Origin: a virus
Lineage: Duplodnaviria; Heunggongvirae; Uroviricota; Caudoviricetes
Reading direction: 5' to 3' (one strand)
IMG/VR virus record: IMGVR_UViG_2547132127_000004
DNA: 23,278 nt
A program made the position numbers. Below are positions 3,001 to 6,000 of the stretch, piece by piece (within the stretch, counting starts at the first letter, position 1; each line of letters begins with the position of its first letter).

Positions 3001-6000
3001 TTGCCAGTACCGGGAATGCGCCAGCGAATGGCTGCGGGGAAAGCAGAAATTATCCGTAAAACTGTTGCTGCCGAAATGCCAGCGATGCAGTGTCTGCAAC
3101 TGGCAAGAGCAGAGCAACGACGCGGAGCGACGCTGATTGATGGGCAAACGGTAGCAGAAAAAGCTCAAAAGCTATGGCAGGACTATTTACGCCAAAGGAT
3201 GCAGCCATGAATATCGCAATTGTGACAATAAATCAGGAGAATGCCGCAATAGCGAGCTGGCTGGCGGCGCAGGATTTCAGCGGTTGTACGCTGGCGCACT
3301 GGCAAATAGAACCTCAGCCCGTAGTGGCGGAACAGGTGCTGGATGCGATGGTGGAACAGTGGCAGCGAACGCCTGCGGACGTTGTTCTCTTTCCGCCGGG
3401 AACGTTTGGCGATGAACTGTCGACCCGGCTGGCCTGGCGTTTACATGGTGCAAGCATCTGTCAGGTGACTTCGTTAGATATTCCAACCGTAAGCATGCGC
3501 AAATCCCACTGGGGAAATGCGTTAACGGCGACGCTGCAAACAGAAAAACGCCCGTTATGCCTTTCCCTGGCGCGTCAGGCGGGAGCAGCGAAAAACGCCA
3601 CGTTGCCCTCTGGAATGCAGCAACTGAACATTGTCCCAGGTGCGCTTCCCGACTGGCTGGTTAGCACAGAGGATCTGAAAAATGTTAGCCGCGACCCATT
3701 AGCTGAGGCCAGACGGGTGCTGGTGGTGGGACAGGGCGGAGAGGCAGATAACCAGGAAATCGTTATGCTGGCAGAAAAGCTGGGAGCCGAAGTGGGCTAC
3801 AGTCGGGCGCGAGTGATGAACGGTGGCGTTGATGCTGAAAAAGTGATTGGTATTTCCGGACATCTGCTGGCACCTGAGGTGTGCATTGTTGTTGGCGCTT
3901 CCGGCGCAGCAGCGTTAATGGCGGGCGTACGCAATAGCAAGTTTATGGTGGCGATTAATCATGACGCCAGCGCAGCGGTATTTTCACAGGCAGATATTGG
4001 CGTGGTTGATGACTGGAAAGTGGTGCTGGAGGCACTGGTGACAAACATTCACGCAGAATACCAATAACGTGCTGCCGGATGATCCTGCCTACGGTTCTGG
4101 ACTGGGGACCTGTAGGCCTGATAAGACGCGTTAAGCGTCGCATCAGGCGCTGAATGTCGGATGTGGCGTGCGGCCAACAAATCAAAACAAATTCAATTGG
4201 TTACGATTATCCCGTCAAAGCAATTTTTTCGCTAACGTCCAGACTCCGGTATTCGTGGTGGAAAGCGCCACGACACCCGCGTTAATCGCATTACGCGCAT
4301 CTTCTTCATCGCATACCAGCCCGCCAGCAATCAGCGGTTGGCGGATTTTTTCCGTCACCCAGCCCAGCACTTTGGGCATGCAGCCTGGCAGGATCTCAAT
4401 ACAATCCGGATTCGATTGCGCAACTTACTTATCAATGTTGTGAAACGAAATCGAATCAACAATAAACAGGCGATGAATACAGAAAAAAACTTCCGCTCTT
4501 GCCGCTTTTAGCATCGATGCTTTGGTGCTGATAATTCCATCCGCCTCGGTCACCAGTTTCAAAAACTGAATCACCACTTCTTTATTTGACGCGCCTTCCA
4601 GCAAATCAACATGAATAAAAGCATATTTCCCGGCGTTCTTAATCTTTTTAACGATATTACTGATGGTGCAGATATTGCCGTACAACACGGAAATAAACTG
4701 GCATTCAGAATCGATGGCCAGTTGCAGGCTGGCATTATCTTTAACGGCAGCAATCACCGGATTCTGGCGGAGCAGGTGTAAGAGGGGCATAAATTATCCT
4801 TATTATTTATACTAAGTTGGCATTATAAAAAAGCATTGCTTATCAATTTGTTGCAACGAACAGGTCATTATCAGTCAAAATAAAATCATTATTTGATTTC
4901 AATTTTGTCCCACTCCCTGCCTCTGTCATCACGATACTGTGATGCCATGGTGTCCGACTTGTGCCCGAGAAGATGTTGAGCAAACTTATCGCTTATCTGC
5001 TTCTCATAGAGTCTTGCAGACAAACTGCGCAACTCGTGAAAGGTAGGTGGATCCCCTTCGAAGGAAAGACCTGATGCTTTTCGTGCGCGCATAAAATACC
5101 TTGATACTGTGCCGGATGAAAGCGGTTCACGACGAGTAGATGCAATTATGGTTTCTCCGCCAAGAATCTCTTTGCATTTATCAAGTGTTTCCTTCATTGA
5201 TATCCCGAGAGCATCAACATGCAATGTTGTAGGGATGGCAATTTTTACGCCTGTTTTGCTTTGCTCGACATAAAGATATCCATCTACGATATCAGACCAC
5301 TTCATTTCGCATAAATCACCAACTCGTTGCCCGGTAACAACAGCCAGTTCCATTGCAAGTCTGAGCCAACATGGTGATGATTCTGCTGCTTGATAAATTT
5401 TCAGGTATTCGTCAGCCGTAAGTCTTGATCTCCTTACCTCTGATTTTGCTGCGCGAGTGGCAGCGACCGGGTTTGTTGTTATATGGCCTTCAGCTATTGC
5501 CTCTCGGAATGCATCGCTCAGTGTTGATCTGATTAACTTGGCTGATGCCGCCTTGCCCTCGTCTATGTATCCATTGAGCATTGCCGCAATTTCTTTTGTG
5601 GTGATGTCTTCAAGTGGAGCATCAGGCAGCCCCCTCCTTATTGCTTTAATTTTGCTCATGTAATTTATGAGTGTCTTCTGCTTGATTCCTCTGCTGGCGA
5701 GGATTTTTTCGTAGCGATCAAGCCATGAATGTAACGTAACAGAATTATCACTGTTGATTCTCGCTGTCAGAGGCTTGTGTTTGTGTCCTGAAAATAACTC
5801 AATGTTGGCCTGTATAGCTTCAGTGATTGAGGTGTACTGGCAATAGCGGACACTACCATTTGTTCTTTTTTTAAGCAGCCATCTGATGATATTTTTCCCT
5901 GAAGGCTGCCGGGGAGATATTCCCCTGACGAGAGTGACGACGCTGACGATTGTAGAAAATCTCAATGTATTCCCGTATTACTGAGATGGCTTCATCCCGG

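Follow-up and report, generated by a model that had tools for sequence, protein, structure and literature searches.

A gene for a putative antiterminator, ygcP, lies beside a prophage end in a 23,278-nucleotide stretch of DNA held as a virus record (IMGVR_UViG_2547132127_000004; this whole stretch is hereafter the window), and its reading frame contains an in-frame TAA. Two questions follow: whether this stop is a genuine, inherited loss of the gene, and whether the prophage junction immediately upstream had any part in it.

The ygcP reading frame and its nonsense codon

In a megablast comparison with 5,426 complete E. coli genomes, the gene was recognised as ygcP, which is 576 nt long and annotated as 'glycerol-3-phosphate responsive antiterminator'. 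Its parts in the window are as follows.

4215..4790, minus strand: ygcP pseudogene of the GlpP/G3P_antiterm family, 191 codons plus stop, the length of K-12 b2768
4425..4790, minus strand: N-terminal ORF of 121 aa, the predicted truncated product (ORF listing; exact protein SUI87159.1)
4425..4427, minus strand: early stop, TAA, at codon 122 in place of the ancestral CAA (Gln); altered base 4427
4215..4424, minus strand: 69 in-frame post-stop codons plus TGA (ORF listing, translation)
4488..4490, minus strand: codon 101, GTT (Val) versus GGT (Gly) in E. coli; G101V, changed base 4489

Read on the minus strand from the ATG at 4790 to the TGA at 4215, the translation gives 121 sense codons, TAA and 69 further sense codons, in agreement with a preliminary description of this DNA that had reported a TAA at codon 122 of a protein given as 191 residues long. 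K-12 MG1655 ygcP (b2768) is indeed 576 nt and 191 aa, and its full-length frame excludes the possibility, considered in that description, of a reference gene ending at the same position. Codon 122 is CAA in K-12, as it is in O157 and Z1323, and the alignment with K-12 that had been proposed as a check places the altered base at gene nt 364, where C has become T (plus-strand position 4427 is A here and G in K-12). The single-nucleotide nonsense change, CAA to TAA, is as it had been described, and both the mutation and its ancestral state are observed directly. The K-12 gene, annotated as 'putative anti-terminator regulatory protein' (PF04309, GlpP family), is the ortholog and likewise lies between ygcO and ygcQ; the window gene differs from it at 22 of 576 nt, of which 20 are synonymous, so that the protein is the same save for G101V and Q122*, and it is also split from ygcNO by the prophage. 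Each of the 15 loci read that carry the TAA also has G101V, the second change specific to S. flexneri. Because 20 of the differences from K-12 are silent and the only protein changes are these two S. flexneri-specific ones, ygcP was under purifying selection up to this lineage.

With codon 122 restored, YgcP matches PF04309 (G3P_antiterm) over the whole domain (residues 12-184, model positions 1-173) with 207 bits, where the curated cut-off is 27; as it stands, with TAA at codon 122, no single uninterrupted frame contains the complete domain. In Pfam searches the 121-aa N-terminal half matches model positions 1-108 of 173 (1.7e-33) and the C-terminal 54 aa match positions 127-173 (E 2.3e-12). 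Since both halves match PF04309 independently, the frame beyond the stop is genuine coding sequence rather than a product of chance, and the 69 post-stop codons specify a protein sequence identical to that of K-12 YgcP, which upholds their earlier reading as coding. Gene callers place a 54-aa ORF here, at 4215..4379, starting from an internal ATG at 4379. Two solved GlpP-like proteins, 3KTS and 1VKF (both 'glycerol uptake operon antiterminator' proteins), align with residues 11-186 of restored YgcP (E 1e-27 and 1e-13, respectively). Compared with these, the window product stops at residue 121 and lacks their conserved C-terminal segments; specifically, the lost part holds the conserved PDCIE-LPG and IAGGL stretches that YgcP shares with 3KTS and 1VKF. 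Judged by the domain truncation, which removes 37% of a single-domain protein, the 121-aa product is predicted to be non-functional. The antiterminator name of YgcP derives from homology, and glycerol-3-phosphate-responsive antitermination is a putative activity; our literature search found no experimental or functional work on YgcP from any organism, and none of the mentions of the name concerned Shigella.

Distribution of the TAA allele

Matches to the 576-nt gene are present in 5,116 of the 5,426 complete E. coli genomes, the best 12 of them spanning the whole gene and carrying the name ygcP, and the window allele shares 99.0% identity with its nearest E. coli counterpart; close relatives therefore hold a full-length intact ortholog, as expected of a pseudogene fixed in one lineage. 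For a 63-nt probe centred on codon 122, matches came from 5,083 complete E. coli genomes, invariably at 62/63 and never perfect, and the idea that the stop is also present in E. coli was rejected on this basis. An exact look-up of the 121-aa product recovered it from the complete or near-complete genomes CP026799, CP026810 and UGYR01000001, from two draft NCBI assemblies and from five Logan contigs of separate sequencing runs, one of which is common to at least 20 samples; at all ten loci obtained in this way, the 576-nt allele is identical to that of the window. The window's 121-aa protein occurs on 24 contigs, with the source name SUI87159.1 (Shigella flexneri). CP026799 is S. flexneri NCTC 9728, serotype 5a (PMC9455713). 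Window positions 1-10790 are colinear with this genome at 99.94% identity and with UGYR01 at 99.95%, from which we conclude that the window derives from an S. flexneri strain close to these; the identity to NCTC 9728 and the S. flexneri protein sources bear out the Shigella-type host proposed in the preliminary description.

A sister allele carries the TAA and G101V together with a G-to-A change at nt 320 (R107H). Among GTDB representative genomes, the 35 nt around the TAA were found in S. flexneri SFBU1023 and in ECMA0423, which is labelled E. coli; both have the sister allele, as do further loci found through the 54-aa ORF, an ORF predicted in 1,809 blocks of the assembly collection. The 121-aa product of the R107H allele is present on 858 contigs named S. 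flexneri, strain 2003036 included, and the two alleles together place the TAA on ~880 contigs named Shigella flexneri. Because E. coli has G at nt 320, the window allele is the less derived of the two. The same lesion is thus observed in independent assemblies of the lineage, 15 loci having been read directly; the term S. flexneri-specific, as used here, refers to the protein source names and to the finding that E. coli lacks the TAA, in a comparison that covered E. coli and S. flexneri.

Several records stand apart. The 4.44-Mb genome ECMA0423 (CP178302.1; L014/L023), labelled Escherichia coli, carries TAA122, G101V and R107H, which is the majority S. flexneri allele, and its E. coli label probably conceals a Shigella-type genome. 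In a 4.8-Mb genome (CAXJOK010000001.1, positions 1314-2665; L025), ygcP has been inactivated separately by an IS1 insertion, and in several other records it is split into pieces of 144 aa and 54 aa in a frameshift-like manner. In E. coli O157:H7 TR01 (L002), the annotation records a frameshift in ygcS and an internal stop in ygcQ, so that decay of the ygc cluster also occurs outside Shigella.

The prophage junction and the order of the two lesions

The following features make up the region upstream of the ygcP start.

4791..4806, minus strand: native ygcO-ygcP spacer of 16 nt with the Shine-Dalgarno sequence AAGGA, the same in K-12 and in S. flexneri loci with an empty site
4803..4819, no strand assigned: hybrid att core, attL type (four-way alignment)
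4820..5829, minus strand: lambda/HK97-type P' arm and int remnant; int stop codon at 4889-4891, ~43 first codons absent

The prophage att junction that had been placed directly upstream of ygcP is present: a lambda-type core with its P' arm and int starts 16 nt before the ATG and abuts host DNA at a core-like site. Window positions 4803-5829 are 98.6-99.1% identical to the attP-int regions of HK97, 434, HK106 and 2B8, the HK97 annotation gives its core as identical with that of lambda, and the ORF at 4889..5965 is the int remnant with a foreign N-terminus. The core was resolved by aligning the window with HK97 attP, the empty K-12 site and the attL of E. coli Z1323. In this alignment the phage attP reads TTTTTTATACTAAGTTG, the empty host site TTATTTATCCAAAGCGG and the window TTATTTATACTAAGTTG. 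Host identity extends to 4810 and phage identity begins at 4803; because A4805 is host-specific and A4811 is phage-specific, the crossover lies within TTTAT (4806-4810). This interval falls on the former ygcO stop codon (4807-4809) and within the lambda 7-bp overlap, TTTATAC (window 4806-4812). The junction, whose anatomy is read directly from the alignment, therefore resembles the Int-attP module of lambda, HK97 and 434 in its near-identical att core, P' arm and int and in a crossover inside the 7-bp overlap, but it differs in its location, as ygcO/ygcP is a secondary site and not the gal-bio attB.

The ygcO/ygcP host site matches the phage core at 11/14 positions. A prophage occupies it in only one of the 5,426 complete E. 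coli genomes (Z1323CEC0013), and its use by a lambda-type integrase is uncommon, a minor curiosity. In Z1323CEC0013 (L013, 7135-7151 region) the hybrid core reads TTTATCCAAAGTTG and int is cut by IS100; because both the hybrid core and the IS in int are different, this insertion is an independent event. In K-12, ygcN, ygcO and ygcP lie on one strand, with ygcN and ygcO overlapping by 10 nt and a gap of 16 nt between ygcO and ygcP, and this tight packing suggests that ygcNOP may form one operon. The prophage separates ygcP from ygcN-ygcO in the window and, since ygcO is absent from the window, must be longer than 18 kb, with its far end beyond the window. A scan of 4050-5100 for promoters and terminators, including any new promoters directed from the P' arm into ygcP, returned counts near the shuffled expectation.

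The order of the two lesions can be observed in the loci that were read. The TAA is found with an intact E. coli-like ygcO-ygcP junction at loci L003, L006-L009, L014-L018 and L023, and with a prophage at the junction at loci L004, L005 and L010-L012; among the loci read, the prophage occurs only with the rarer allele without R107H (G at gene nt 320). Because TAA carriers with a prophage-free junction exist, the nonsense change preceded the integration and is more widespread than the prophage, the two lesions are independent, and the prophage is ruled out as the cause of the stop. The preliminary description had stated that coding sequence and promoter context are both altered, which is true of the window, but the alterations are separate events and not a joint one; an adjacent prophage junction should not be taken as the cause of gene decay. 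The reading that we hold with high confidence is that ygcP is an inherited S. flexneri loss-of-function pseudogene, whose stop arose once and was followed much later by the prophage. According to this reading, a C-to-T transition converted Gln122 from CAA to TAA, such that translation ends after 121 of 191 residues and the last third of the single GlpP-type domain is lost. This happened a single time, together with G101V or close to it, in a forebear of the S. flexneri sampled here, and the TAA has been inherited ever since. The lambda/HK97-type phage arrived much later, in a sublineage related to serotype 5, where it integrated at the core-like sequence overlapping the ygcO stop, thereby cutting an already dead ygcP from ygcN-ygcO, and the prophage afterwards decayed through IS600.

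The opposite order, in which the prophage came first, the lost ygcNO promoter silenced ygcP and the stop then built up under relaxed selection, is very unlikely. The lesions are only 380 nt apart in the window and the insertion does sever ygcP from ygcNO, as this order would have it, but the TAA and G101V are present in many genomes with an intact junction, the majority R107H allele included, and the prophage is confined to the rarer allele as noted above. Moreover, all empty sites have the host overlap TTTATCC, which is better accounted for by sites that have always been empty than by precise excision time after time. An error in the sequencing or assembly of this record is the first thing to suspect behind a single-base nonsense change, and nothing specific speaks in its favour; its probability is negligible, as the identical allele is present in three independent complete genomes, several drafts and Logan assemblies of separate runs, and the same TAA recurs in the sister allele, both on its 858 contigs and in the two GTDB representatives. 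This disposes of the doubt about sequencing error that the preliminary description had raised.

We consider it extremely improbable that ygcP is still functional, be it through readthrough, as a 121-aa regulator or by reassembly of the 121-aa and 54-aa pieces. The C-terminal 69 codons are without further disruption and match the K-12 protein, and gene callers annotate both halves as CDS, which would suit retained function; however, with only 22 differences from K-12 in the whole gene, an intact downstream frame is what would be expected of a young pseudogene. TAA is not known to be a recoding signal in enterobacteria. In addition, the single domain spans residues 12-184, codons 123-137 would be absent from any two-piece version, and the bases just before the internal ATG (4379) contain no clear Shine-Dalgarno sequence. 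It is also very unlikely that loss of ygcP or of the ygc cluster was selected and defines the S. flexneri lineage in the manner of the anti-virulence losses or, as a separate proposition, that ygcO/ygcP is a recurrent secondary att site. The anti-virulence losses of Shigella include cadA, ompT, nadA/nadB and speG; ygcP is not known to be among them, and the data compared here show no sign of selection for its loss. Rather, we infer that the loss of ygcP reflects neutral decay of a dispensable gene cluster.

Gene decay in the surrounding cluster and prophage

The ygcP lesion lies among the following elements of the ygc cluster and the prophage.

1..168, no strand assigned: IS1 end abutting truncated ygcU (E. 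coli homology begins at 169)
169..1022, plus strand: 3' remnant of ygcU, K-12 residues 202-484 only (tblastn of K-12 YgcU)
1116..4067, plus strand: ygcS, ygcR and ygcQ, full length and without stops (tblastn of K-12 proteins)
5828..7095, minus strand: IS600 copy truncating int, with ORFs of 100 and 272 aa, annotated as IS3-like IS600 transposase in E. coli matches

All residues of ygcS (445/445), ygcR (259/259) and ygcQ (286/286) could be aligned by tblastn, at 97-99.6% identity. The IS1 terminal inverted repeat is recognisable at window 124-168, and DDE_Tnp_IS1 ORFs adjoin the matching point in S. flexneri loci. In related S. flexneri loci the gene beyond IS1 encodes a radical-SAM protein and is not ygcW, so that an IS1-associated deletion or rearrangement has probably taken ygcW and yqcE. 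With IS1 cutting ygcU, IS600 cutting int and a mosaic prophage, the setting is the pseudogene-rich and IS-rich one of Shigella that the preliminary description had envisaged. Gene decay in Shigella proceeds by nonsense changes, IS1 and IS600 insertions and the loss of catabolic loci, and the window likewise has a single-base stop beside an IS1-cut ygcU and an IS600-cut int, in a cluster of putative catabolic genes.

The ygcP lesion is an ordinary lineage-fixed pseudogene, one of many in Shigella, and presents nothing mechanistically new. Public S. flexneri records already include its sequence and the two fragments; in the literature we found no published discussion of the S. flexneri ygcP nonsense lesion. 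Its significance is mostly one of annotation: what has been deposited as two 'glycerol-3-phosphate responsive antiterminator' proteins, of 121 aa and 54 aa, is a single dead gene in two halves. A T at nt 364 of ygcP also provides a simple S. flexneri marker that is absent from the 5,083 complete E. coli genomes.

The prophage itself is heavily rearranged. The first IS600 has taken the place of the 5' end of int together with all the DNA that separated int from the replication genes; no xis was found within the window, and no immunity region was seen between int and the replication genes. A second full IS600 lies at 20114-21381 in the same orientation, 14.3 kb apart from the first, and an inverted 186-nt fragment is located at 22881-23066. 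Besides two replication modules, the prophage encodes a Q antiterminator and a lysozyme. Within window 7303-16095, a Toprim protein and NinB are followed in series by Ash, a DnaC-like ATPase and a DnaB helicase, and this serial arrangement of two replication modules suggests that the prophage is a mosaic or that two prophage remnants have fused. The first of these proteins, 968 aa in length and encoded at window 7303-10209, has a Toprim domain at residues 209-296 and a LAGLIDADG-like segment at residues 579-634, and could be a primase with a homing-endonuclease or intein-like insert.
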